DNA from: a virus
Taxonomy: Duplodnaviria; Caudoviricetes
Strand: one strand, 5' to 3'
Virus record (IMG/VR): IMGVR_UViG_2863371048_000001
DNA: 64,000 bases
A program made the position numbers and the translations under genes. Positions 45,548 through 56,170 of this stretch are shown here, piece by piece (within the stretch, counting starts at the first letter, position 1; each line of letters starts with the position of its first letter). Below the pieces are notes generated by a model. That model saw nothing but the letters and a program-made list of their open reading frames with translations. It was not told the origin of the DNA and made no database searches.

Positions 45548-45758
45548 ACGACCCCCGACACCCGCCCCGTCGCCAGAAGCGCAGGACGCGCTCGCTGAGG
45601 CCCGCGAGGCGCGCGAGACATCCGAGCAAGGGCTGCAAGAGGTATGCGAACGCTGGCCAGAGGTGCGGGAGGTCACGTCGTCGCTGCGCGCGCACCGGGA
45701 ACGCAACGGGTTCCGCGCCATGTTCGAGCGTGCCCTGCTGAAGGAAGGAGAGGCGTGA
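45531..45758 (+). CDS. lysis-region hypothetical protein
   Basis: L..HRERNGF motif; overlaps. Confidence 0.6.
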   Translation: MRWRRRRPPTPAPSPEAQDALAEAREARETSEQGLQEVCERWPEVREVTSSLRAHRERNGFRAMFERALLKEGEA

Positions 45759-46093
45759 TCCTGATCGGCCTCATTGGTGGCGTGCTCGTCATCGTGTCAG
45801 CGGTGTTCGGCGTCACGTCGGCACTGCTGTACGGCACGCGCTTCCCCTGGTGGGAGCACTCAGACGGCCGTCACCTGTTCGCCTACATGGCGGTCATCGG
45901 CAGCGTCCTCGGCCTGTGGGCCGGGCGGCTGATCGTCACCGGCCAACTCACCGACTCCGGCGCCGGCGGCTGGCCATGGATCCGCCTTGTCGCGTTCGGG
46001 GCGGTCACGTGGGTCCTCGGCTGGCGGCTTCTCATCATCACCCAGGCCTGGCGCGACATGCGCCGCAAGCGGACCAAGGAGGACCCCCGATGA
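45755..46093 (+). CDS. three-TM membrane protein (holin-like)
   Basis: three hydrophobic segments; AAGGAG RBS. Confidence 0.65.
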   Translation: MILIGLIGGVLVIVSAVFGVTSALLYGTRFPWWEHSDGRHLFAYMAVIGSVLGLWAGRLIVTGQLTDSGAGGWPWIRLVAFGAVTWVLGWRLLIITQAWRDMRRKRTKEDPR

Positions 46094-46218
46094 CTGAACC
46101 TCTTCCGCCGTACCCGTTCAACCGGGCTGGCGTCACCCCCGAGGACGGCGAGCAGAACGTCTCCCAGGACCCCGGGGCGGCATACGAGAGCGAGGTGGAT
46201 GATGACGGCGATGCGTGA
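46090..46218 (+). CDS. small acidic peptide upstream of the endolysin
   Basis: AAGGAGG RBS; overlaps the lysin start. Confidence 0.5.
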   Translation: MTEPLPPYPFNRAGVTPEDGEQNVSQDPGAAYESEVDDDGDA

Positions 46219-46909
46219 CCGGGTCCTGTCGGTCGCACGCTCCCAGCTCGGCACCCGCGAGTACTCGGACGGGTCGTCTAAGTACGGCTCCTGGTATGAG
46301 CGGATGAAGCCTGCCCCGGGGTTCGCCACCGGTGCCTGGTGTCAGATGTTCACGGGCTGGTGTGCCAACGAAGCGGGCCTGTCGGAGGAGGCGTTCCCGC
46401 GATTGGCATACACGCCGTACGCGGTGCAGTGGTTCAAGGACCGCGGCCGGTGGGGGACCAAGCCCCGCGTGGGCGCGCTGGTCTACTACAACTTCCCCGG
46501 CGGCGACTTCGTCGACCACGTCGAGATCGTCGAAGCGGTCCGCGCGGACGGTTCCATCGTCACGATCGGCGGCAACGTCGGCAACGCCGTCAAGCGCCTG
46601 GTGCGCCGCTCGAACATCGCGGGCTACGGCTACCCCGACTACGCCGCTGCCAAGGACTGGATGGAGGAGATCGTGGACAAGCTGCCGCTGCTGAAGAAGG
46701 GCGCCGAGAAGAAGGCCGCCAACAAGCCGCACATCAAGACCCTGTTCAAGCTGCTGGACGCGCGAGGCTTCCCGCTTCCGTCCAACGTGGACGACATGAC
46801 GTTCGGCGACCCGATGGACAAGAAGGTCCGCGAGTTCCAGAAGGCGAAGAAGCTCCTCGTGGACGGCGAGGTCGGCGAGAAGTCCTGGGCCGCCCTGGTC
46901 CTGCCGTAG
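46211..46909 (+). CDS. endolysin: CHAP domain plus PG_binding_1 domain
   Basis: AWCQMF..W (Cys), DHVEIVE (His), IGGN; VREFQKAKKL.VDGEVG.KSWAAL. Confidence 0.9.
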   Translation: MRDRVLSVARSQLGTREYSDGSSKYGSWYERMKPAPGFATGAWCQMFTGWCANEAGLSEEAFPRLAYTPYAVQWFKDRGRWGTKPRVGALVYYNFPGGDFVDHVEIVEAVRADGSIVTIGGNVGNAVKRLVRRSNIAGYGYPDYAAAKDWMEEIVDKLPLLKKGAEKKAANKPHIKTLFKLLDARGFPLPSNVDDMTFGDPMDKKVREFQKAKKLLVDGEVGEKSWAALVLP

Positions 46910-47113
46910 CCGTGGAGCCCATCGACTCCTGGCCGCTGCTGCTGTCGCGCCTGGCGTGCCTGCGGCCGGCGGACGACGAGCCCGAGGACGAGTCTCGTCT
47001 CCCTGGGCTCATCGATGAGAGCAACTGACCGAAGTGGCGCACACCTCCATGTCGTGCGCTGCTCACCCATTCCCCCCGCCGCCCCTGGCGGGCCTGTCCC
47101 CAAGGAGGGGCTC

Positions 47114-47302
47114 GTGAACGTAGGCAAGTACGCCAAGACCATCGTGGCCGCGCTGTTCGCTGCGGTTGTCGTCGCCAAGTCGGCGGTCACCGATGGCGTG
47201 TACAACCCGGCCGAGGTGATCGACACCGTTCTGGCGGTGCTGACCGCCCTGGGCGTCTGGGTGGTCCCGAACGCCAAGCAGTCGGACCTGTCCCAGCGAT
47301 AG
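47114..47302 (+). CDS. holin
   Basis: KYAKTIVAAL...LAVLTALGVWVVPN two-TM pattern; AAGGAGG RBS. Confidence 0.8.
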   Translation: MNVGKYAKTIVAALFAAVVVAKSAVTDGVYNPAEVIDTVLAVLTALGVWVVPNAKQSDLSQR

Positions 47303-47358
47303 GCTGAACGCAGGCCCCGGGCGTGCGGACACATGCTCGGGCATCGCCTGCAACAGTT

Positions 47359-47390
47359 GCGGCCCCGTCCTCTTCGGAGGGCGGGGCCGC
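47359..47390. terminator. bidirectional terminator, copy 1
   Basis: GCGGCCCCGTCCTC-TTCG-GAGGGCGGGGCCGC. Confidence 0.75.
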
Positions 47391-47406
47391 TTCTGCATGT
47401 CCGGGG

Positions 47407-48093
47407 TCAGGCGCGGGTGTAGCCGTCGGCCTCCAGGTCGATGCCCCGGCTGCGGATGTGCTCGGCGGCCTCGTCGTCGCCACTGAACCCGCTGGTATCG
47501 GTGCTGTCGATGCCGTCCACGTGGGCCTGTTCGGACACCTCGTTGTCGCGCTGGATCATAGTGATGACGTCGTCGCCCCAGCCGTCAGGGTCCTCGTCGC
47601 GGCTGCGGGTGTAGGTAGTGACCGTGGCGGACTTCGGGGGGTCGTACGGGCTGGGCTGGACGGGGTGCTGCGCAGGGTCGTAGGCGCCGGGCTCGATGCC
47701 GAGGATCTTGCCGTCGCCCTCCTCCACCAGGCCGGGCCGGTCGATCCGGAGGGTGAAGCGCTCGCCCGCCACGATCTGGTCCCCAACCCACTCGTTCTTA
47801 GCAAGGACCGCGAGCACGTCGCCGGTGTCGTAGACGGCCAGGATGGTGAAGCCGTATCCCTGCTCGGCAGCGGCCTCGATCCAGTCCTCGACGGCCTGGT
47901 CGCGCCAGTTGCCCTGGTCGATGGCTTCGACGGTGATGTCGCGGAGGGCGATGTGCAGAGGAACCGGGGTGATCATCGCAGCGGGCCTTCCGTAGCGGGT
48001 GACGATGGTGGTCTTGCCATGGGTCTGGGCGGCAATGACGAGGTCGCCGAACTTCTTGCGCCCGTCTTCGATGCCCACTTCCTTGCTGCTCAT
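47407..48093 (-). CDS. Phd/YefM-like DNA-binding N-domain fused to an acidic domain
   Basis: VGIEDGRKKFGDLVIAA...TIVTRYGRPAAMITP. Confidence 0.75.
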   Translation of the reverse strand: MSSKEVGIEDGRKKFGDLVIAAQTHGKTTIVTRYGRPAAMITPVPLHIALRDITVEAIDQGNWRDQAVEDWIEAAAEQGYGFTILAVYDTGDVLAVLAKNEWVGDQIVAGERFTLRIDRPGLVEEGDGKILGIEPGAYDPAQHPVQPSPYDPPKSATVTTYTRSRDEDPDGWGDDVITMIQRDNEVSEQAHVDGIDSTDTSGFSGDDEAAEHIRSRGIDLEADGYTRA

Positions 48094-48097
48094 GAAT

Positions 48098-48128
48098 AGA
48101 ACCTTAAGGTCCTTAAGGTTCTCTGTCT
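48098..48128 (-). promoter_or_regulatory. leaderless promoter overlapped by a double palindromic operator
   Basis: minus strand TAGACA-17-TAAGGT-7-ATG; AGAACCTTAAGG-T-CCTTAAGGTTCT. Confidence 0.7.
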
Positions 48129-48233
48129 AGGGTTCTTGGAAAAGGGTTGGCGCTCCAGCCATGGCGGGGCGTCTCCAAGATCGATTCCCGCCCCTCATAG
48201 GATCGCCCGGGTATCGCACCACCCGGGGGAGAC

Positions 48234-48512
48234 ATGGCCGAGTACGAATTTCCGCCTGACCTGCTGGACGCCCAGCGCGCCTACGTCGCCGCTCATGCCC
48301 GCGTCCAGGAGGTGACAGATGCGCTGCCGTCATCGATGGCGACCCTGGCCGGAGAGGCAGAGGTGAGCGAGGAGCAGCGGGAGGAGCTCGCCGCGGCCCG
48401 TGCGGAACGGCTCCGCTGGGTCTCCGTCCTGTATGCCGACCACCCGTGGTGGGCGACCGTGGACAACCCGGCCAAGGCGCGGGCCGCGCTGCAGGAGACG
48501 GTCAAGGCCTGA
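48234..48512 (+). CDS. hypothetical helical protein
   Basis: GGGGAG RBS; FPPDL..AQ...HPWW pattern. Confidence 0.65.
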   Translation: MAEYEFPPDLLDAQRAYVAAHARVQEVTDALPSSMATLAGEAEVSEEQREELAAARAERLRWVSVLYADHPWWATVDNPAKARAALQETVKA

Positions 48513-48571
48513 CGGCTGTAGCCAGATCATCGCCTGCGGGTGCACCATGAACGTCCGTCGCCCATGACAGA

Positions 48572-48603
48572 GCGGCCCCGCCCTCTTCGGAGGGCGGGGC
48601 CGT
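48572..48603. terminator. bidirectional terminator, copy 2
   Basis: GCGGCCCCGCCCTC-TTCG-GAGGGCGGGGCCGT. Confidence 0.75.
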
Positions 48604-48619
48604 TTCTGTGCGTTCGAGG

Positions 48620-50002
48620 TCAGGCAAGGACGCCGCTGCGAGCGGCGAGACCGCGCAGTTCGGGCGCAGTGCGTCCGGACACCAGCAGACCGGAGATGAG
48701 GGACTTCACCGCCGGGCGTGCATGAGTTTCCTCGGGGGCATGGTGCTCGGCCGTCAGGAGCGCACGTACGCATTCCTCACGGCGGCCCAGCTGCCCGAAG
48801 GCCGCGGCGATGTCGGTGTAGTAGCGGGATCGGCGCTCCACGCTGGGTAGGCTCTGCGGCGCGATCGCACGGGCGGCGCTCAAGGCAGCGGCGGGATCTC
48901 CGGCGGAGTTCTCCGCCGAGATGAGATGCAGTTGGACGGTGATCGGGCTGAAACCGCCGCCGTGGTCGCGCAGCATGGTGCTACCGCCGAGTTCGGTGGC
49001 GATGGCGGCTGCCTCGTCGGTGAGTTGTCGCATTCCTTTACGGTCACCGCTGCGGGCAGCGGTGTAGGCCGCGGACTGGATCAGCAGGCCGCGTTCAGCG
49101 GCACCGGCCCGTCCAGCGCTGCGCAGACCGGGGTCGTCAGCGGCGGCCAGCGCGATCGACATCGCCTGGTCGTTCCAGCCGGCCTTTCGGGCCAGCACAG
49201 CGAGGTTCCGCGCGGCCTCCGCCACCGTGAGCGCATCGTCGCCGGCCTCGGCCAGTTGGCGTGCCCGGTCGGCAGCCATCCAACCGAGCTGCTGCTCATC
49301 GAGCTTGACGAGCATCCGGGTCGCCAGAACGTAGCTTTGCGCGAGAAACGCGTGATCCCTCCCGCCGTTGAGCGCATGTCCTGTGCGGATCAGCCGGGGC
49401 AGGCGCACGGCGAGGCTGCCGTAGCGGCAGGTGTGGAAGTCGGTGAGCGCGCGGGAGAGTTCCGCGGGCAGTTGCTCGGGCGGCAGGTCACCGAGGTTGC
49501 TGCCCAAACCGAGCATCGCATCCCGGAGGCCGGCGACGAGCACCTCACCGAGTAGAGCCTCGTCCGCCTGTGCGGCGCCGCCTCCAAGAAATCGGGAGCT
49601 TGCGGCTGCGGCGGCCGTGACCGCCAGGTTCGCCAGCAAATTCCTTCGCCGCACCGGATCTTCACCGTCCTCCCGTTGAGTCCTGTCCACTTTACGAGCG
49701 GGCAGGCTGGGATATGCGGTAGTTGGTACCGTCGGTTGACCGTGTCGGACCTTCGGCCGGGGCGAGGCAAGGCCGAAAGCCTGAGGCGGAATGCCGAGGG
49801 CCTCGGCGAAGCACCGCAGCACGGCGACGTCGGTCATCGAGGAGATGCCCCGCTCGTAGCGGGAGACCTGGGCCGCGGAGTATCCGGTCAGCTTGCCGAG
49901 CTGGGTCAGCGTCAGCCGTTGTGCCTGCCGTATCTGACGTATGAGCTTCCCGGGAGCCGGGATTGCCTCGGGAGTTGTGCCTGCCCTGCCGATCGCATCC
50001 AT
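48620..50002 (-). CDS. XRE-family regulator with a large helical (TPR-like) C-domain
   Basis: LIRQIRQAQRLTLTQLGKLTGYSAAQVSRYERG; VRRRNLL linker. Confidence 0.85.
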   Translation of the reverse strand: MDAIGRAGTTPEAIPAPGKLIRQIRQAQRLTLTQLGKLTGYSAAQVSRYERGISSMTDVAVLRCFAEALGIPPQAFGLASPRPKVRHGQPTVPTTAYPSLPARKVDRTQREDGEDPVRRRNLLANLAVTAAAAASSRFLGGGAAQADEALLGEVLVAGLRDAMLGLGSNLGDLPPEQLPAELSRALTDFHTCRYGSLAVRLPRLIRTGHALNGGRDHAFLAQSYVLATRMLVKLDEQQLGWMAADRARQLAEAGDDALTVAEAARNLAVLARKAGWNDQAMSIALAAADDPGLRSAGRAGAAERGLLIQSAAYTAARSGDRKGMRQLTDEAAAIATELGGSTMLRDHGGGFSPITVQLHLISAENSAGDPAAALSAARAIAPQSLPSVERRSRYYTDIAAAFGQLGRREECVRALLTAEHHAPEETHARPAVKSLISGLLVSGRTAPELRGLAARSGVLA

Positions 50003-50208
50003 ACCCTGTCCCTGCTCGTAGCTGAGACTGCGCCGCCCTCACCGTAGCCGCATCCCGGCGCCCTGGACAGGGACTTTGCATCAGGCGCAAACACCTTTGC
50101 AGCCCAAGACAGCGCCCCTCCCGCCGCCGGGCCGGATGCGCTGACCTTAAGGGCGAACGGCCCGCACTCGGCAGGCCGCCATCTGGTCCCACCACTCAGG
50201 AGGTCCTG

Positions 50209-50940
50209 ATGCAGCCCTCGGTCCTCGGCCCGTCCACGGCACATGCTGTAGACGCCCGCCTCGCTCCCGACTACTACTTCCATCCCGACGGCCTCGACTC
50301 CTACATCACGCAGGTGCTGAGGAACTGCCGGACGGTCTTCGACATCAAGCCCGCCATGACCGCAGACCTCGACGACCCTGCCGCCGCAGGCCTTTACGAC
50401 GCGCCCCGCGGCGTCGTAGAGGACGGCGCTCTGCTTCGGGGCGAGGTCATCGTCCAGGCCGGTGCCCGCATCGAGGCAGGCGCCCAGGTCATCGGGCCGG
50501 TGCTGATCTGCGCCGGCGCGATCGTAGCCGCCGGCGCCCTGGTCCGCGACCACAGCGTGATCGGCCCCGGCTGTCGGATCGGCTTCGGCGCGGAGATCAC
50601 CCGTAGCCTGCTGGCCGGGCATGTCTTCGTGAAACACCCTTGCTTCATCGGCGACTCGGTGATCGGGCGGCGCGTCAACATCGGCTCCTTCTGCTCCACG
50701 ACCGGGCTCCGATGCGACCGCGGGCCGGTTGCCGAACCGGCGATCGAGGAAATCACCGTCAACCTCGACGGGCAGCGGATCGGCACGGGACAAACGAAGT
50801 TCGGCGCCGTCATCGGCGATGAGGTGGCTCTGCCGGCCGGGACCGTGCTGTCGCCGGGCACGCTGATCGGCCCCGGCACGGTGGTCTACCCGCGCGACCA
50901 CATCGGCGGCTTCCTGCCCGCCGGCTCCCGGGTGCGGTGA
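50209..50940 (+). CDS. left-handed beta-helix acetyltransferase (GlmU C-terminal-like)
   Basis: hexapeptide repeats; TG..KFGAVIGD; no nucleotidyltransferase domain. Confidence 0.8.
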   Translation: MQPSVLGPSTAHAVDARLAPDYYFHPDGLDSYITQVLRNCRTVFDIKPAMTADLDDPAAAGLYDAPRGVVEDGALLRGEVIVQAGARIEAGAQVIGPVLICAGAIVAAGALVRDHSVIGPGCRIGFGAEITRSLLAGHVFVKHPCFIGDSVIGRRVNIGSFCSTTGLRCDRGPVAEPAIEEITVNLDGQRIGTGQTKFGAVIGDEVALPAGTVLSPGTLIGPGTVVYPRDHIGGFLPAGSRVR

Positions 50941-52256
50941 CGGCCATGACCATCACCCCCGCCCGGGCCGCTTTCGAGGCCACCGTCGTGAGGGTCGCCG
51001 GTGGGCGGCCTCTGAGCGGCCGCATCCCAGTGCAGGGCAGCAAGAACATCGCCCTGCACCTGTATGCGGCCACGCTCCTGGCAGATGCCCCGGTCGTCCT
51101 TGCCGCGGCTCCGGACATCATCGACACCGGAGTATGCGCGCAGATCCTGACCTACACCGGGGCCCACGTCGCCGTCGACGGCGGCCGGTTCGCTGTGACC
51201 CCAGCCGCGGCCCCCTGCCCCGTCATCCATCCGGAACTCGGCCGTCGAGTACGTACGACCGTCGTCCTGGCCGCCGCGGTGCTGGCCCGCACCGGGCAAG
51301 TCACCTTCCCTTACCCCGGTGGCGACGCCTTCTGTCCCCGCCTGATCGACCGGCACCTCGCGGCGATGCAGGCGGCCGGCGCCGAAGTCCTCGCCGACGC
51401 CACCACCATCAGCGCGCGGTGCGGACCGCACGGTGTGCGGGCATTCACCGTGGACGTGGACACCCCGTACGGGCCGAGCCTGGGGGCGACGGTGACCGCC
51501 ATGCTGCTGGCCGCCCGCGCCCCGGGCACCAGCCTGATCACGCACCCGTCGATCGAGCCGGAGGTCACCGAGACCGCCCGATTCCTGACCGAGCGCGGCG
51601 CCCTGATCCACTTCACAGGGCAAGGGCTGCACGTCAGCGGAAGCGACTGGATCACCGGCGGTGACTTCACGGTAGCCGGGGATCGGATCGAGGCAGCCAC
51701 CATGATCATGGCCGCCGCCTCCACCGGCGGCAGCATCCACCTCGATGGAATCACCGCCTCTGCCTTCCCCAACGGCCTCACCGAGGCCCTGTCCGCGGCA
51801 GGCATCAGTCTCACCGACGACGCCAGCGGTGGCGTGCGCGCGCAGCTGAACGGCCCCCTGCAGGCCATTGACGCGGCCACCGGTCCGCACCCGGCTCTGC
51901 CCACCGACACCGCACCGCAGCTGGCCGCGATGCTCACCCAGGCCCATGGATCCTCACTCATTACCGAGCGCGTGTATCCCAGCCGTAACACCCATATCGC
52001 GGGCCTGCGAGCCTTCGGCGCCGACATTTCCTCCACCGGCCCGGTCATTGGCCTGCGCGGGCCCATCCGGCTACGCCCCGCCACGGCGGCGGCCGAAGAC
52101 ATCCGCGCGGTGACCGCTTTGCTAATCGCCGCTCTGGCCGCCGAAGGCACCTCTACGATCCGGGGGGTGTACCACCTCCGGCGCGGCTATGGCCACCTGC
52201 TTGCCAACCTTGCCGCGCTGGGAGCCGACATCACCACCACCTCGGAGGCCTCCTGA
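50937..52256 (+). CDS. murA: UDP-GlcNAc enolpyruvyl transferase, MurA-like with Cys115-to-Asp
   Basis: GSKN, PGGD...R.ID.H, GDRIEA.T, PHP..PTD, DIRA, HL.RGY. Confidence 0.88.
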   Translation: MTAMTITPARAAFEATVVRVAGGRPLSGRIPVQGSKNIALHLYAATLLADAPVVLAAAPDIIDTGVCAQILTYTGAHVAVDGGRFAVTPAAAPCPVIHPELGRRVRTTVVLAAAVLARTGQVTFPYPGGDAFCPRLIDRHLAAMQAAGAEVLADATTISARCGPHGVRAFTVDVDTPYGPSLGATVTAMLLAARAPGTSLITHPSIEPEVTETARFLTERGALIHFTGQGLHVSGSDWITGGDFTVAGDRIEAATMIMAAASTGGSIHLDGITASAFPNGLTEALSAAGISLTDDASGGVRAQLNGPLQAIDAATGPHPALPTDTAPQLAAMLTQAHGSSLITERVYPSRNTHIAGLRAFGADISSTGPVIGLRGPIRLRPATAAAEDIRAVTALLIAALAAEGTSTIRGVYHLRRGYGHLLANLAALGADITTTSEAS

Positions 52257-53314
52257 TGCCCGCACCGTTCACCGCCAATGACGTCGCCCGGCTCCAGGAG
52301 ACTCTTGATGAGGTGGTCGCCGACGGCGCCGCCCCCGGCGGGGTCGTCGTCTGCGGCACCATCGACGGGCAAAAGCACGTCCTGGCCGCCGGCACCGTCG
52401 CGCCCGAACTCGGCGAGCTCACCCCCACCGAGCACACCATCTACGACATCGCCTCGCTGACCAAGGTCGTCGCCACTTGGCCTCTCATCGGCCAGGCCCT
52501 TGCCACTGGGCTGGTCGATCTCGACGCACCCACGCGCGATGTCCTGCCCGCCATGACCGGTGAGGCACCCAGCGGTGAGGCGACGCTCCGCCAGCTCCTC
52601 GCCCACGCCTCCGGGCTGCGCGCCTCAACGCGCCTGGACCACTACCGTGGGGCTGACGCGCCGCTGCACGAGCTCCTATGCCGCGAACCGCTGGAGGACA
52701 CTCCTGGCCGGCACCGCTACATCAACCGCGGCTACATCCTCCTCGGCCTGGCCCTCGCACACGTCAACGGCGTCCCCTTGGATCACCTCGCCGACCAGCT
52801 CTGGCAGCGCATCGGGATGACCTCCACCGTCTACGGGCCCATTGCCCGCGGTCACCACGTCGCGCCGACCGAACAGCGCATTCCCGGCGCCCCGAGGACC
52901 TGGGGCGCCGTGCACGACGACAACGCCGCCCTTCTGGGCGGCATCGCCGGGCACGCGGGCGTCTTCTCCACACCCCGTGACCTCGCCACCTACGCCACCT
53001 GGCTGCTCGACGCATACGCCTACGGCGACGCTGTCCTGGGTGAGTGGCTGCGGGCGAGCCTCGTCCCGCAGGCCGTGATCGAACCGGGTTTGGACCGCGG
53101 TCTGTCGTGGATTCTCGCCGCCGGTGGACGCGTCGCGTACCACCACGGTTTCACCGGCACCAGCCTCTACCTGGCCCCAGACGCTGGCCGTTACCTGGTG
53201 ATCTGCACCAACGCCGTCTACTACGGCAATGCCCGCACCCGGATCGCGCCGCTGCGGACCCTCGCGCTCAAGACGATCTCTGCCACCTGGCATCCGGAGG
53301 CGCTTGATGAGTGA
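52256..53314 (+). CDS. beta-lactamase-fold serine hydrolase (AmiE/NamA-like amidase candidate)
   Basis: DIASLTK (SxxK), YIN, VHDDNA..LGG.AGHAG.FS, HHGFTGT. Confidence 0.8.
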   Translation: MPAPFTANDVARLQETLDEVVADGAAPGGVVVCGTIDGQKHVLAAGTVAPELGELTPTEHTIYDIASLTKVVATWPLIGQALATGLVDLDAPTRDVLPAMTGEAPSGEATLRQLLAHASGLRASTRLDHYRGADAPLHELLCREPLEDTPGRHRYINRGYILLGLALAHVNGVPLDHLADQLWQRIGMTSTVYGPIARGHHVAPTEQRIPGAPRTWGAVHDDNAALLGGIAGHAGVFSTPRDLATYATWLLDAYAYGDAVLGEWLRASLVPQAVIEPGLDRGLSWILAAGGRVAYHHGFTGTSLYLAPDAGRYLVICTNAVYYGNARTRIAPLRTLALKTISATWHPEALDE

Positions 53315-54398
53315 CCTGCTGGCCGATCACACCACACTGCGCCTCGGCGGACCCGCCGATCGGCTGCTCACCCACACCGACCCCGCCGCCTGGACTGATC
53401 TCACCCAAACCGTCATCGGCCAACCCGTAGCACCGTTCGTTCTCGGCGGCGGCAGCAACACCCTCGCCGCCGACGCCGGATACCCCGGGCCGGTTATCCA
53501 CATGACAACCCGGGGTATCACCGTCCGCCCACTCGGCGATGGCACCACGGAAGTCACCGTTCAAGCGGGCGAACCGCTATCCGCCCTCGTCGGCTTCGCC
53601 GTCAGCGAGGGCCTGTCCGGCATCGAATACCTCGCCGGCATCCCCGGCACCACCGGCGCCGCCCCCGTGCAGAACACCGGCGCCTACGGTCAGCAGATAT
53701 CCGACGCCCTCACCCACCTCACTGTCTACGACTGGAACCGCCGACAATCCGCCCGACTCCGCCCCGAGGAATGCGGCTTCGGCTACCGCACCAGCATCTT
53801 CAAGACCCACCTGGGCCGGTGGACGATCCTTGAGGTCGCCCTGCGCCTCACCCCCAGCACGTACGCCGCCCCGGTCACCTACCAGTACCTCGCCCACGCA
53901 CTCGACATCCCCCTCGGCACCCGGCCCCCGCTCGCCGAAGCGGCCCAAGGCGTCCTGGCCGACCGCTGTCAGCGCGGCTTGGCCCTACCGGAGAACGGCC
54001 CGGACGCTCGCCAGGCGGGATCGGTCTTCCTCAACCCGCCCATCACCACGGCTCAAGCCGACGCGGTCCGCGCCGCTGGTGGCGTGGCCTACCGCGATGA
54101 CCACAGCGTCCTGCGAGCCAGCGCCGGATGGCTGCTCCAGCTGGCCGGACACCACCCCGGCAACCAGCTCGCACCAGGGGTGTTCTGCTCGACCCGCCGA
54201 GCTCTTACCCTCACCGCCCACGACGGCGCCACCGCGGCTTCCTTCAACATGGTCCTGCAGAAGCTGGCCCGTGACGTCTACGAAGTGATTGGCATCCGGC
54301 TGCACCCAGAGCCCGTACGACCTGTCGCAGCGTGGATGGCCGCTGAGAAAGAGGACCCCGGAGTTCTGGCCATCGGGGTTGAGCGGGTCGAGCAGTAG
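53307..54398 (+). CDS. murB: UDP-N-acetylenolpyruvoylglucosamine reductase
   Basis: LGGGSN, GIPGT.GAAPVQN.GAYG, CGFGYR.S.FK, AGS.F.NP, SAGWL, PEP. Confidence 0.9.
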   Translation: MSDLLADHTTLRLGGPADRLLTHTDPAAWTDLTQTVIGQPVAPFVLGGGSNTLAADAGYPGPVIHMTTRGITVRPLGDGTTEVTVQAGEPLSALVGFAVSEGLSGIEYLAGIPGTTGAAPVQNTGAYGQQISDALTHLTVYDWNRRQSARLRPEECGFGYRTSIFKTHLGRWTILEVALRLTPSTYAAPVTYQYLAHALDIPLGTRPPLAEAAQGVLADRCQRGLALPENGPDARQAGSVFLNPPITTAQADAVRAAGGVAYRDDHSVLRASAGWLLQLAGHHPGNQLAPGVFCSTRRALTLTAHDGATAASFNMVLQKLARDVYEVIGIRLHPEPVRPVAAWMAAEKEDPGVLAIGVERVEQ

Positions 54399-54406
54399 GC
54401 GCTGTG

Positions 54407-54437
54407 GGCCCCGGTCCCCCTCGCCGGGACCGGGGCC
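54407..54437 (+). terminator. hairpin after murB
   Basis: GGCCCCGGTCCC / GGGACCGGGGCC. Confidence 0.6.
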
Positions 54438-54623
54438 GGCTCAACGGTCGGCTGGGGCGGCCAGCCGTTCCGCCTCTTCGTGCAGGGCCTCGATGAGGAG
54501 CAACGCCAACCGCAGCTCCTCACCAACGAGGTCATCGAGGACGTCCATCAGGCCTCCCTAGACACAAGACGCCCCATGGGCCACAAGGGTTGACAACCGC
54601 GCCGCAAACGGACTCGGATATGA

Positions 54624-54657
54624 AGAAGCTCCGCCTTCCAGGGAAAGCGGAGCTTCT
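54624..54657 (-). terminator. terminator after the toxin gene
   Basis: AGAAGCTCCGC / GCGGAGCTTCT. Confidence 0.65.
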
Positions 54658-54668
54658 GTCGCGCTAGA

Positions 54669-55040
54669 TCAGTCCACGAGTCCCATGTAGGCGAAAAGGT
54701 TCTCATGGAGAATCCCCTGCATGTCCGCAGGGAGATGGCCGATGAGATCTTGGATCTCATCCTTAGCGAGTGGCTGAACAGCCACTATGCGGGCCCATCC
54801 TTTTTTAGGGAGGTTGGCCACTGCGGCGCCAATCTGTAGGCAGTATGCCGTCTTATGGGATGGCGCCGTGGAGATCGGCACGACTAAGGCAATCGGCCAA
54901 TCGGGATTCTCATTGGTTTCATCGCCGCTGACCACGATTACTGGACGACGGGGCTTGACGTTGCGCTCGTCATTGGGGGGCAGAGTGAGATCAGAGTCGT
55001 CGACCCAGTACACGCCACCCTTGCGGATGGGTGCCTTCAC
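54669..55040 (-). CDS. mazF: PemK/MazF-family endoribonuclease toxin
   Basis: IRKGGVYWV...K.RRPVIVVS...VVPIST...QPL.K..I...IG.L. Confidence 0.85.
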   Translation of the reverse strand: MKAPIRKGGVYWVDDSDLTLPPNDERNVKPRRPVIVVSGDETNENPDWPIALVVPISTAPSHKTAYCLQIGAAVANLPKKGWARIVAVQPLAKDEIQDLIGHLPADMQGILHENLFAYMGLVD

Positions 55041-55687
55041 TGGTCGCCTAGCACCTTCCCGTTCGCTCGGCGAATGGAATCAGTGCTAGTCATGAGCTCA
55101 ACCAACAGCTCAGCACCCACACCTGGGTCGTTCTCCTGGAGCGGACGATGTGGACGCCGTGCCTTTGCCCGAGCGAGTAGGGCCTTGACCTGATTGCGAC
55201 GGCGAACACGGCTCAAGTCCAGAAGAACGCCACGCTCAGCGCCGGCCTGCGCCTCTACCATCGGAGGCGTCTTATACGAAAGATCCCTTAGCGCAGTTGA
55301 ACTCTTGCTGCCGTGGCGGCGGACAGTATCTCGGACGATCTGCATGCTTTCGCCAGGGAGAGGGTCCTCGATGTCGACAACCAGAGTGAGCACACAGGCG
55401 CCGAAGCTGTCGTCGGACAGGCGGCTGTCGTTTCGATCGATCAGCTCGCTGTCGGCGAGTTCGTACTCAGTGTGAGCGAGCGCGGCGTCGTAGGGGCCGT
55501 AGTTGTCCCACCGCCAAGTCGCACCGGTGAACTGAACACTGCCGATCTCGACGGCTCGGAGGTCGGCCATGTAGAGGAGCTTGGCGAGCTTCGTCTTGGT
55601 GATCTCAAAGCCCTGCTCACGTGCGGCCTTGAGCACCGCCAGGGCGGCTGAAACTAGGGGGCTGGAGGGTTGGGAAGGAAGATCCAC
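55037..55687 (-). CDS. Panacea (DUF4065/SocA-like) antitoxin
   Basis: TKTKLAKLLYMAD...W..YGPY...L..LSY.TPP; 4-nt overlap with the toxin. Confidence 0.8.
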   Translation of the reverse strand: MDLPSQPSSPLVSAALAVLKAAREQGFEITKTKLAKLLYMADLRAVEIGSVQFTGATWRWDNYGPYDAALAHTEYELADSELIDRNDSRLSDDSFGACVLTLVVDIEDPLPGESMQIVRDTVRRHGSKSSTALRDLSYKTPPMVEAQAGAERGVLLDLSRVRRRNQVKALLARAKARRPHRPLQENDPGVGAELLVELMTSTDSIRRANGKVLGDQ

Positions 55688-55988
55688 GACCCCTCCTCGC
55701 ATTCTCTCTCTCGACATCAAGCTACCTTCTAGGGCTGGATGTGGCCACTGTCGCCCCCGATAGATCCTTCTTCGTTCCCGCTGTTTTACCTGTTCGGGTA
55801 GGACATGGCGGGCTGGTGAACTATTTCACGTGGGCCCAGTCCAAGTCTTGGGAATGGCCTGCGCGAGCATTGCATCCCCGATGCTGGACGTCCCAGGGCT
55901 TGTCCCGGTTGTCATGAAGTCCAGACTTCAACGACAGCTTGGCGTCGGATCCCGTACGGCAGGCCCGGCTCGACTGTCAGCTCCAGCC

Positions 55989-56129
55989 TTACTGTTCCTC
56001 GCTCTCCTCGTAATCCTTATCGGCGGCCTCCTGGCGGAGCTGTTCCAGGTGCGGCGCGAGGGCGGTCATGATGCGGGCGTGGAGCCACTCCGGCGGTTCG
56101 TCGGGGAGGTCTGTGGTCATGCCGCCCAT
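55989..56129 (-). CDS. small acidic peptide
   Basis: hand-translated MGGMTTDLPDEPPEWLHARIM...; below the ORF-track cutoff. Confidence 0.4.
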   Translation of the reverse strand: MGGMTTDLPDEPPEWLHARIMTALAPHLEQLRQEAADKDYEESEEQ

Positions 56130-56170
56130 GCTCACCCCACCCGGTGATCGTCCGCAGGCAGACATGACGA

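Follow-up and report, generated by a model that had tools for sequence, protein, structure and literature searches.

A mobile cassette joining divergent MurA and MurB paralogs to two partner enzymes and a dedicated regulator in actinomycetes

Firmicutes and actinomycetes are known to carry additional MurA copies that allow differential regulation, and vanHAX-type cassettes are described as mobile, self-regulated operons in which paralogs of precursor-synthesis enzymes are combined with a cytoplasmic D-peptidase-type hydrolase. This study describes a cassette at positions 48620-54437 of IMG/VR record IMGVR_UViG_2863371048_000001, a 64-kb stretch (hereafter, the window) on contig 2 of a 9.0-Mb actinomycete genome with roughly 70% G+C. 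A divergent regulator (REG) faces four translationally coupled genes, which encode in this order a left-handed beta-helix acyltransferase (LbH), a divergent MurA paralog (MurA*), a serine hydrolase or acyltransferase of the beta-lactamase fold (S12) and a divergent MurB paralog (MurB*). The nearest relatives of the cassette proteins come from Streptosporangium. The four enzyme families are well known; their fixed combination, the dedicated regulator and the mobility of the unit are new.

Comparison with the closest described systems clarifies what is particular to this locus. MurA* and MurB* share folds and catalytic residues with the housekeeping MurA and MurB and with the Gram-positive MurA/MurZ, but they are 31-39% identical to the enzymes of the host, fall into a separate deep clade, and are joined to LbH and S12 under a dedicated regulator in an accessory, mobile unit. 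By analogy, the cassette may be likened to the vanHAX-type operons, including their patchy occurrence in actinomycetes. It would, however, act at the sugar-nucleotide steps and not at the D-Ala-D-Ala end of the precursor; its regulator is of the HTH/TPR type instead of a two-component system, and no antibiotic is linked to it. LbH has the fold and the catalytic His of the acetyltransferase domain of archaeal-type GlmU (ST0452), which is also its best sequence match, but it has no uridylyltransferase domain, its acceptor residues are changed, it carries an insertion of eight residues and it scores far under the curated cut-offs. S12 shows the SxxK, YxN and HxG motifs and the fold of the S12 and penicillin-binding protein (PBP)-like hydrolases (R61 DD-peptidase, D-aminopeptidase/DaaA, PBP4B/AmiE, EstB, ClbP and SurE), whereas its identity to solved members is 18-24%, it has no evident signal peptide, and it fits no single subfamily. 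A full-text literature search found no description of such a cassette, as the earlier note on this DNA, made from the sequence alone, had supposed, and a preprint on mycobacterial recycling of N-acetylmuramic acid (MurNAc) names no related enzymes (PMC13041923).

The four enzyme genes are tightly packed. As read from the sequence, LbH and MurA* overlap by GTGA (50937-50940), MurA* and S12 by TGATG (52254-52258), and S12 and MurB* by 8 nt, the ATG at 53307 preceding the TGA at 53312-53314. An AGGAGG ribosome-binding site lies ahead of the LbH start codon (ATG 50209) and a GGAGG site upstream of that of MurB*, while ATG 50946 is an alternative start for MurA*. Shortly after the MurB* stop codon (TAG 54396-54398), RNAfold predicts a hairpin with a 12-bp core stem (54407-54418 paired with 54426-54437) and a 7-nt loop; for a segment of 75 nt that includes a second hairpin the folding energy is -48.6 kcal/mol. 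On re-reading of the sequence, the overlaps and the closing hairpin given in the earlier note were exact. Translational coupling together with a terminator indicates that the genes form one operon. An Rfam scan of 47000-56500 gave no meaningful match, and no sigma-70-like promoter was found.

The cassette enzymes are extra copies, not the housekeeping ones, because the host genome has two MurA genes (C1:3187584 and C2:971208), one MurB gene (C1:3590521) and one GlmU gene (C1:2042500) elsewhere. No dcw genes are present at the cassette, and the proposal that it is not the housekeeping cluster is therefore upheld. The MurA and MurB copies are neither the only ones of the host nor vertically inherited: MurA* shares 31-32% identity with both host MurA proteins and MurB* 39% with the host MurB, and both are horizontally mobile.

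MurA* matches PF00275 with 152 bits and passes NF006873 (322.5 bits, cut-off 297), while its score against the equivalog model TIGR01072 (307.5 bits) does not reach the cut-off of 392.7. When MurA* is aligned to solved MurA structures, the equivalents of K22, N23, R91, R120, D123, H125, D305, R331, D369, R371 and R397 are kept. The catalytic and substrate residues K22, R91, R120, D305, R331, R371 and R397 all agree with B. anthracis MurA1 (3sg1), and most of these seven are invariant across 32 family members. The catalytic loop reads PGGDAF, with Asp in all 32 members at the position of Cys115, the proton donor and target of fosfomycin; apart from this replacement, the retention of catalytic motifs in MurA and MurB that had been noted at first reading was borne out by the structure-based alignments. 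Asp-for-Cys MurA proteins are known from mycobacteria, and, judging from other Asp-type enzymes, fosfomycin-like inhibitors directed at Cys should be unable to alkylate MurA*. One of the two housekeeping MurA proteins of the host is of the Cys type and the other of the Asp type. In a quick tree the cassette MurA* proteins form a monophyletic clade (SH-aLRT 99) on a long stem (length 1.69).

Several further MurA*-related genes were encountered. Orphan MurA*-like genes with 52-54% identity and without adjoining LbH, S12 or MurB* occur at two loci: on S. althioticus plasmid CP109208.1 (L011) such a gene lies beside genes for hypothetical proteins, a GH15 glycoside hydrolase and a type I-E CRISPR locus, and in L082 (genome G557) it adjoins a REG-like fragment. 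Two cassette MurA* copies per genome, on different contigs or at different positions, are found in Streptomyces sp. 4F14 (L024 and L026) and in genomes G268, G493 and G533. A 669-aa protein from a read assembly (P0017), which looked like a fusion of MurA and beta-lactamase, is a frameshift artefact in which the in-frame S12 match is limited to residues 478-606, and it therefore gives no Rosetta-stone evidence.

MurB* passes NF010478 (271.9 bits, cut-off 231) and contains FAD_binding_4 and MurB_C domains. Its Arg/Ser/Glu triad is kept, since the FGYRTS, GSVFLNP and C-terminal PEP motifs align with those of the M. tuberculosis and P. aeruginosa enzymes (5jzx and 7osq).

LbH matches TIGR03992 with 119 bits (cut-off 292) over profile positions 234-390 only, which correspond to the C-terminal half of archaeal-type GlmU, and its best match in the PDB is Sulfolobus ST0452 (2ggo; E-value 1.6e-19). 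The equivalent of the catalytic His308 is H143; K142-H143 and about 60 other positions are invariant in 26 sequences. LbH has no paralog in the host genome.

In S12, the residues S67-x-x-K70, Y155 and H296-x-G298 are invariant in 29 sequences, and position 157 is Asn in every cassette copy and Asp in four distant homologs. The domain starts at residue 17, and the N-terminus, read by eye and not by a predictor, has no evident signal peptide, by which S12 is predicted to be cytoplasmic. Among proteins of solved structure, the best sequence matches of S12 are to a D-amino acid amidase and to an S12 peptidase from Streptomyces (E-value about 1e-9). The best curated NCBIfam match is PBP4B (NF002968; 64.1 bits against a cut-off of 385, E-value 1.1e-17), covering residues 58-261 only. 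The AlphaFold2 (AF2) model has a predicted local distance difference test (pLDDT) value of 89, and Foldseek searches with it gave many matches of probability 1.0, in which FmtA-like proteins, Pab87, EstG, SurE, R61 DD-peptidase, EstB, ClbP and LovD scored about equally (18-24% identity, template modelling (TM) score about 0.7), with macrolactin acyltransferase also among the neighbours. The assignment of this gene in the earlier note to the AmiE/NamA-type amidases that cleave MurNAc-L-Ala is thus not specifically supported: the best sequence matches are the two just named, PBP4B is far under its cut-off, and the fold is generic. Genes for MurNAc utilisation (murQ, murP, nagZ) were not found among the neighbours of annotated loci.

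Stand-alone S12 homologs with 43-50% identity are present in other genera of the family to which the window belongs (L068-L073), and they are possibly the stock from which the cassette enzyme arose. The three such loci that were scanned lie near cysS, a SpoU-type methylase gene and/or a trehalose phosphatase gene; these neighbours give no hint of function.

The regulator consists of an XRE-type HTH domain (about residues 17-76), a disordered linker and an all-helical, TPR-like solenoid (about residues 148-455). The DNA-binding part is matched by Pfam HTH_31/HTH_3 and, weakly, by the NsdA family. For the solenoid, Foldseek searches with the AF2 model (pLDDT 77) gave weak matches to the TPR peptide-binding proteins LGN, phage Rap and PlcR (E-value about 1e-3, TM score 0.35-0.45). 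The XRE/TPR-like regulator proposed at first reading is thus confirmed in its HTH part, the TPR part having the solenoid matches just mentioned; feature-based neighbours in a protein atlas are actinomycete regulators and TPR proteins. With its N-terminal XRE HTH and a solenoid that weakly matches Rap and PlcR, REG may resemble the RNPP-type receptors (PlcR, phage Rap, AimR), but it differs from them in the long disordered linker between the domains and in having actinomycete regulators as its sequence relatives. No cognate peptide gene was recognised, although no search was aimed at one, and with 206 bp the REG/LbH intergenic region offers little space for such a gene.

Nearly every locus has a divergent regulator gene whose product is about 450 aa long. 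In most loci this protein is 57-88% identical to REG; the values are 29-39% for Microtetraspora and for the sister clade described below. Several loci without MurB* have a divergent upstream gene of about 440 aa that the REG profile missed and that BLASTP aligns at about 28% identity over the HTH region only; the regulator is therefore replaceable or fast-evolving. In eight aligned intergenic regions, the longest fully conserved blocks are an inverted repeat, TTTGC-N7-GCAAA, and a third half-site, TTTGCA, while most of the remainder has diverged. This site is plausible as a putative operator of REG.

About 50 loci were collected from at least nine genera, including Streptomyces, Streptosporangium, Microtetraspora, Actinacidiphila, Streptacidiphilus, Embleya, Kitasatospora and Peterkaempfera, with decayed copies in Sphaerisporangium. 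LbH, MurA* and S12 are adjacent and in the same order in every intact locus, in two clades and at 55-88% identity. About half of the loci retain an intact MurB*. In about eight others the gene is truncated and from about eight more it is missing (L065 and L066 are among these two groups), whereas LbH, MurA* and S12 remain intact there. Many cassette copies are decayed.

A sister clade (loci L074-L081, in genomes G483, G338, G477, G519, G497, G365, G239 and G321), mainly from Kitasatospora, Streptacidiphilus and Peterkaempfera, has the same five-gene layout, with 55-63% identity in the four enzymes and about 33% in the regulator; it is present in 32 of the 121 Kitasatospora species sampled, with unrelated flanks each time.

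The MurA* clade is represented in 40 of the 401 Streptomycetaceae species sampled and in 32 of the 121 Kitasatospora species sampled. Within the family of the window, two of 200 other genomes have a cassette-type S12, and four congeners have none. In the quick tree, MurA* proteins of Streptosporangium and Microtetraspora branch from within the Streptomyces copies. Even near relatives have unrelated flanks. The three nearest genes on each side of 21 loci encode 126 proteins with 134 Pfam families, none of which occurs in more than four proteins. The cassette is located on large linear plasmids such as pFRL4, at prophage ends, in the core of the Embleya chromosome and, in L066, in a chromosome arm beside TIR-TPR genes and a transposase gene. 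Patchy distribution, unrelated flanks, sites on plasmids and at prophage ends, and frequent decay are typical of conditionally useful accessory cassettes. The cassette is a unit that is selected together and horizontally transferred between soil actinomycetes. The co-conservation expected by the earlier note is evident from the collinear LbH-MurA*-S12 genes of these loci, and the mobility from the MurA* tree, the patchy prevalence and the flanks.

In the pFRL4-type context (L010; also L016, L017, L021 and L049), the genes immediately upstream of REG encode a PIG-L family deacetylase, a carbon-nitrogen hydrolase, a peptide deformylase and a sugar-nucleotide-binding protein. These may be accessory partners in that sublineage, and some were met again in 4-7 loci.

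The coordinates of the cassette and its neighbours are given in Table 1. Positions 1 to about 48000 of the window are occupied by a siphovirus-type prophage on the + strand, with genes for a DnaB-like helicase, RusA, an anti-repressor, the large terminase and the portal protein, and with a 1407-aa open reading frame (ORF) at the tape-measure position, judged from length and position alone. Family-model searches confirmed the gene content reported at first reading, with a large divergent regulator and a position between phage lysis genes and a toxin-antitoxin/TraB module. The region from 44 to 64 kb has no syntenic host backbone in four congeners, and no att-type direct repeat flanking it was found within the window.

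Table 1. Features of the cassette and of the neighbouring part of the window.
Feature	Position	Strand or location	Evidence or context
REG, 460-aa HTH/TPR-like regulator	48620..50002	-	Pfam HTH_31/HTH_3
Candidate operator	50075..50101	REG/LbH intergenic region	conserved blocks in alignment
LbH, stand-alone left-handed beta-helix acyltransferase, 243 aa	50209..50940	+	Hexapep, Hexapep_GlmU
MurA*, divergent UDP-GlcNAc enolpyruvyl transferase paralog	50937..52256	+	NF006873 322.5 bits
S12, beta-lactamase-fold serine hydrolase or acyltransferase, 352 aa	52256..53314	+	PF00144
MurB*, divergent UDP-N-acetylenolpyruvoylglucosamine reductase, 363 aa	53307..54398	+	NF010478 271.9 bits
Terminator-like G+C hairpin 3' of MurB*	54404..54440	+	RNAfold
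Phage holin	45644-46093	+	upstream of cassette
CHAP/PG_binding lysin	46199-46909	+	upstream of cassette
MazF	54669-55040	-	downstream of cassette
Panacea-domain antitoxin	55037-55720	-	downstream of cassette
Tyrosine integrase	56471-57643	-	downstream of cassette
FtsK/TraB-type gene	57720-59957	-	downstream of cassette

Some other particular features were noted around the cassette. A terminator-like hairpin sequence of 54 nt occurs twice with 87% identity (47359-47412 and 48572-48625), enclosing a gene on the - strand (47407-48093) and a small ORF on the + strand (48234-48512); the second copy ends at the REG stop codon, and the two copies could delimit modules in the cargo-bearing end of the prophage. 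The segment from 54000 to 56000 with MazF and Panacea has a G+C content of 0.625, against about 0.69-0.70 around it, which suggests a separate acquisition. Similarity to congeners extends over 58375-60353 and 61400-61924: the TraB region matches two loci of one congener (G097) with 74-75% identity, and a 500-bp piece of a 500-aa gene (60576-62078) has counterparts of 74-79% identity in each of the four congeners, so that related conjugative elements are in circulation within the genus.

A cassette adjoining lysis genes was found only in this window and in S. laurentii (L008). In the latter, the r1t-type holin and the Amidase_2 lysin are both unrelated to those of the window, and the cassette has the opposite orientation relative to the late genes, pointing to two separate captures. 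In the manner of a prophage moron, the cassette stands with its own regulator and terminator at the lysis-gene end in both cases, which is not a phage-wide arrangement. Among 50,697 phage records of INPHARED there is no cassette-type MurA, all matches being ordinary MurA genes with less than 60% identity, and no copy turned up in IMG/VR when it was scanned with two conserved patterns of the family. Phage hallmark families did not recur among the 126 flank proteins. The link to phage lysis genes drawn at first reading therefore holds for two contexts of about 50 and does not extend to phage collections or to the flanks of other loci; the prophage is one vehicle among several and not the home of the cassette.

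The interpretation that we tentatively prefer is that the cassette provides an inducible auxiliary route to UDP-N-acetylmuramic acid (UDP-MurNAc) with trimming of the precursor, which helps the carrier under cell-wall stress. It builds on what is directly supported, namely gene content, coupling, intact catalytic residues, co-conservation and mobility. For substrates, operator binding, signal and physiological role we infer the following scheme. REG probably sits on the TTTGC-N7-GCAAA...TTTGCA site and frees the operon on some signal. LbH would acylate an amino-sugar phosphate or a nucleotide sugar upstream, MurA* would transfer enolpyruvate from phosphoenolpyruvate (PEP) onto UDP-N-acetylglucosamine (UDP-GlcNAc), and MurB*, replaced by the host MurB in loci that have lost it, would carry out the reduction to UDP-MurNAc or a near analogue. 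The presumably cytoplasmic S12 would hydrolyse or transfer an acyl, D-aminoacyl or peptide group on the precursor, loosely in parallel with VanX/VanY. The net effect would be a conditional route to a UDP-MurNAc-type precursor, with trimming, independent of the control of host GlmU and MurA, which would favour the carrier when antibiotics, lytic enzymes, growth arrest or the like put stress on the wall. In the genome of the window the cassette would be cargo at the lysis-gene end of a prophage.

Several links in this scheme follow from the pattern of conservation. MurB* is often truncated or lost while LbH, MurA* and S12 stay intact. Most simply, this would mean that the product of MurA* is accepted by the host MurB and is thus enolpyruvyl-UDP-GlcNAc (EP-UDP-GlcNAc) or a close relative. 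The annotated loci have no Mur ligase, glycosyltransferase or transporter/exporter in the cassette, so the product must enter host pathways. S12 may trim D-aminoacyl or peptide parts, since its nearest sequence relatives are D-stereospecific amidases. In M. tuberculosis the C-terminus of GlmU is under the control of PknB and MurA is activated about 30-fold by phosphorylated CwlM, and E. coli MurA binds UDP-MurNAc tightly (PMC6736417). The cassette duplicates the acetyltransferase and MurA steps, and it could therefore open a pathway that is independent of host control.

A stronger version of this reading, which we regard as possible but doubtful, is that the cassette is a transferable switch at the entry to cell-wall synthesis: a ligand-sensing REG would turn on a route through the GlmU acetyltransferase, MurA and MurB steps that is independent of kinases and feedback, together with a cytoplasmic D-peptidase-type enzyme, and would thereby either force precursor synthesis in arrested hyphae or rewrite precursor chemistry. 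If true, it would be a counterpart, at the level of sugar nucleotides, of van-type remodelling and a mobile form of tolerance to wall antibiotics, lysins and phages.

A number of observations weigh against the auxiliary UDP-MurNAc route. Its main weakness is that a model of increased flux alone fails to explain invariant LbH and S12 together with a dispensable MurB*. The argument from regulation is by analogy, resting on mycobacteria and not on Streptosporangium or Streptomyces. Compared with the acceptor contacts of ST0452, LbH has F in place of Y311 and G in place of N331, and K337 and K340 are not kept. The acceptor therefore need not be glucosamine 1-phosphate (GlcN-1-P), the substrate proposed in the earlier note; with the catalytic His kept and these four positions changed, that proposal is overstated, and LbH is an intact acyltransferase that may have another acceptor. 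The cassette encodes no uridylyltransferase. Foldseek places S12 in a generic PBP/S12/family VIII/esterase fold, discriminates no subfamily, and so does not indicate a substrate. In the search of sequencing runs the only holder of the cassette was a DNA run, possibly of the source sample, and no RNA run was listed. Fosfomycin resistance was considered as a sole purpose and is insufficient, as the host already has an Asp-type MurA.

Another possibility, which we consider rather unlikely, is that the cassette alters the chemistry of the wall itself. LbH would add an unusual N- or O-acyl group, MurA* and MurB* would accept the modified substrate, and S12 would edit it, so that modified muramic acid in the wall protects from muramidases, endolysins or phage adsorption; when borne by a phage, the cassette would then serve lysogenic conversion or superinfection exclusion. 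Such a role accounts for the presence of its own very divergent MurA and MurB, with 31-39% identity to the host enzymes and a long stem, for the invariance of LbH and for LbH acceptor residues unlike those of a GlcN-1-P acetyltransferase, and it also fits the two independent captures at the lysis-gene ends of prophages, where the cassettes are oppositely oriented and the neighbouring holins and lysins are unrelated. However, the residues of MurA* that contact the UDP-sugar and PEP are canonical, the frequent loss of MurB* from otherwise intact cassettes means that the host MurB must cope with the product, and most copies lie outside prophages.

It is unlikely that the cassette is a small biosynthetic cluster for a signal, inhibitor or antimetabolite derived from a nucleotide sugar. 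In that case S12 would act as a PBP-type acyltransferase or releasing enzyme like SurE, LovD or ClbP, which, together with macrolactin acyltransferase, are among its fold neighbours. The unit is also compact and carries its own regulator. Enolpyruvyl transferases (NikO/PolA) serve nucleoside antibiotic pathways, which also counts for this proposal. Against it, MurA* and MurB* look canonical, and neither an exporter nor a tailoring enzyme or resistance gene travels with the cassette in the annotated loci and the flank census.

Salvage of muropeptides, with S12 as an AmiE/PBP4B-like amidase of MurNAc-peptides and the other three enzymes rebuilding UDP-MurNAc for reuse, appears more unlikely still. 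PBP4B/yfeW and B. subtilis amiE sit in MurNAc-utilisation operons, and PBP4B is the best curated NCBIfam match of S12 (E-value 1.1e-17); yet the score of 64 bits stands against a cut-off of 385, the PDB sequence matches of S12 indicate D-amino-acid amidases, and murQ, nagZ, mpl, a kinase gene or a transporter gene does not travel with the cassette in annotated loci.

A role in anti-phage or abortive defence, in which murein precursors are drained or corrupted once the TPR sensor detects infection, is improbable. The mobile, patchy distribution agrees with it, as do defence-like neighbours, namely MazF/Panacea in the window, TIR-TPR genes in L066, a restriction endonuclease gene on pFRL4, and DEAD and ResIII helicases in four and two of the 126 flank proteins, respectively. 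This neighbourhood is inconsistent between loci, though, the enzymes are biosynthetic rather than degradative, and PADLOC has no model that matches LbH, MurA*, S12 or MurB*, with only generic HTH matches for REG.

That these are auxiliary metabolic genes of phages for lytic growth is very improbable: the cassette does lie beside holin and lysin genes in two prophages, but it is missing from the phage records and, with the two patterns, from IMG/VR, most copies have non-phage contexts, and it carries its own regulator and terminator.

MurA catalyses the committed, regulated step of peptidoglycan synthesis and is an antibiotic target, and the cassette duplicates this step and adds two invariant partners. 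Its conservation and mobility, and its presence in about a tenth of the sampled Streptomycetaceae species, point to an undescribed wall-related function, for which a mechanism of resistance or tolerance, a switch in wall chemistry or a new nucleotide-sugar product are candidates.

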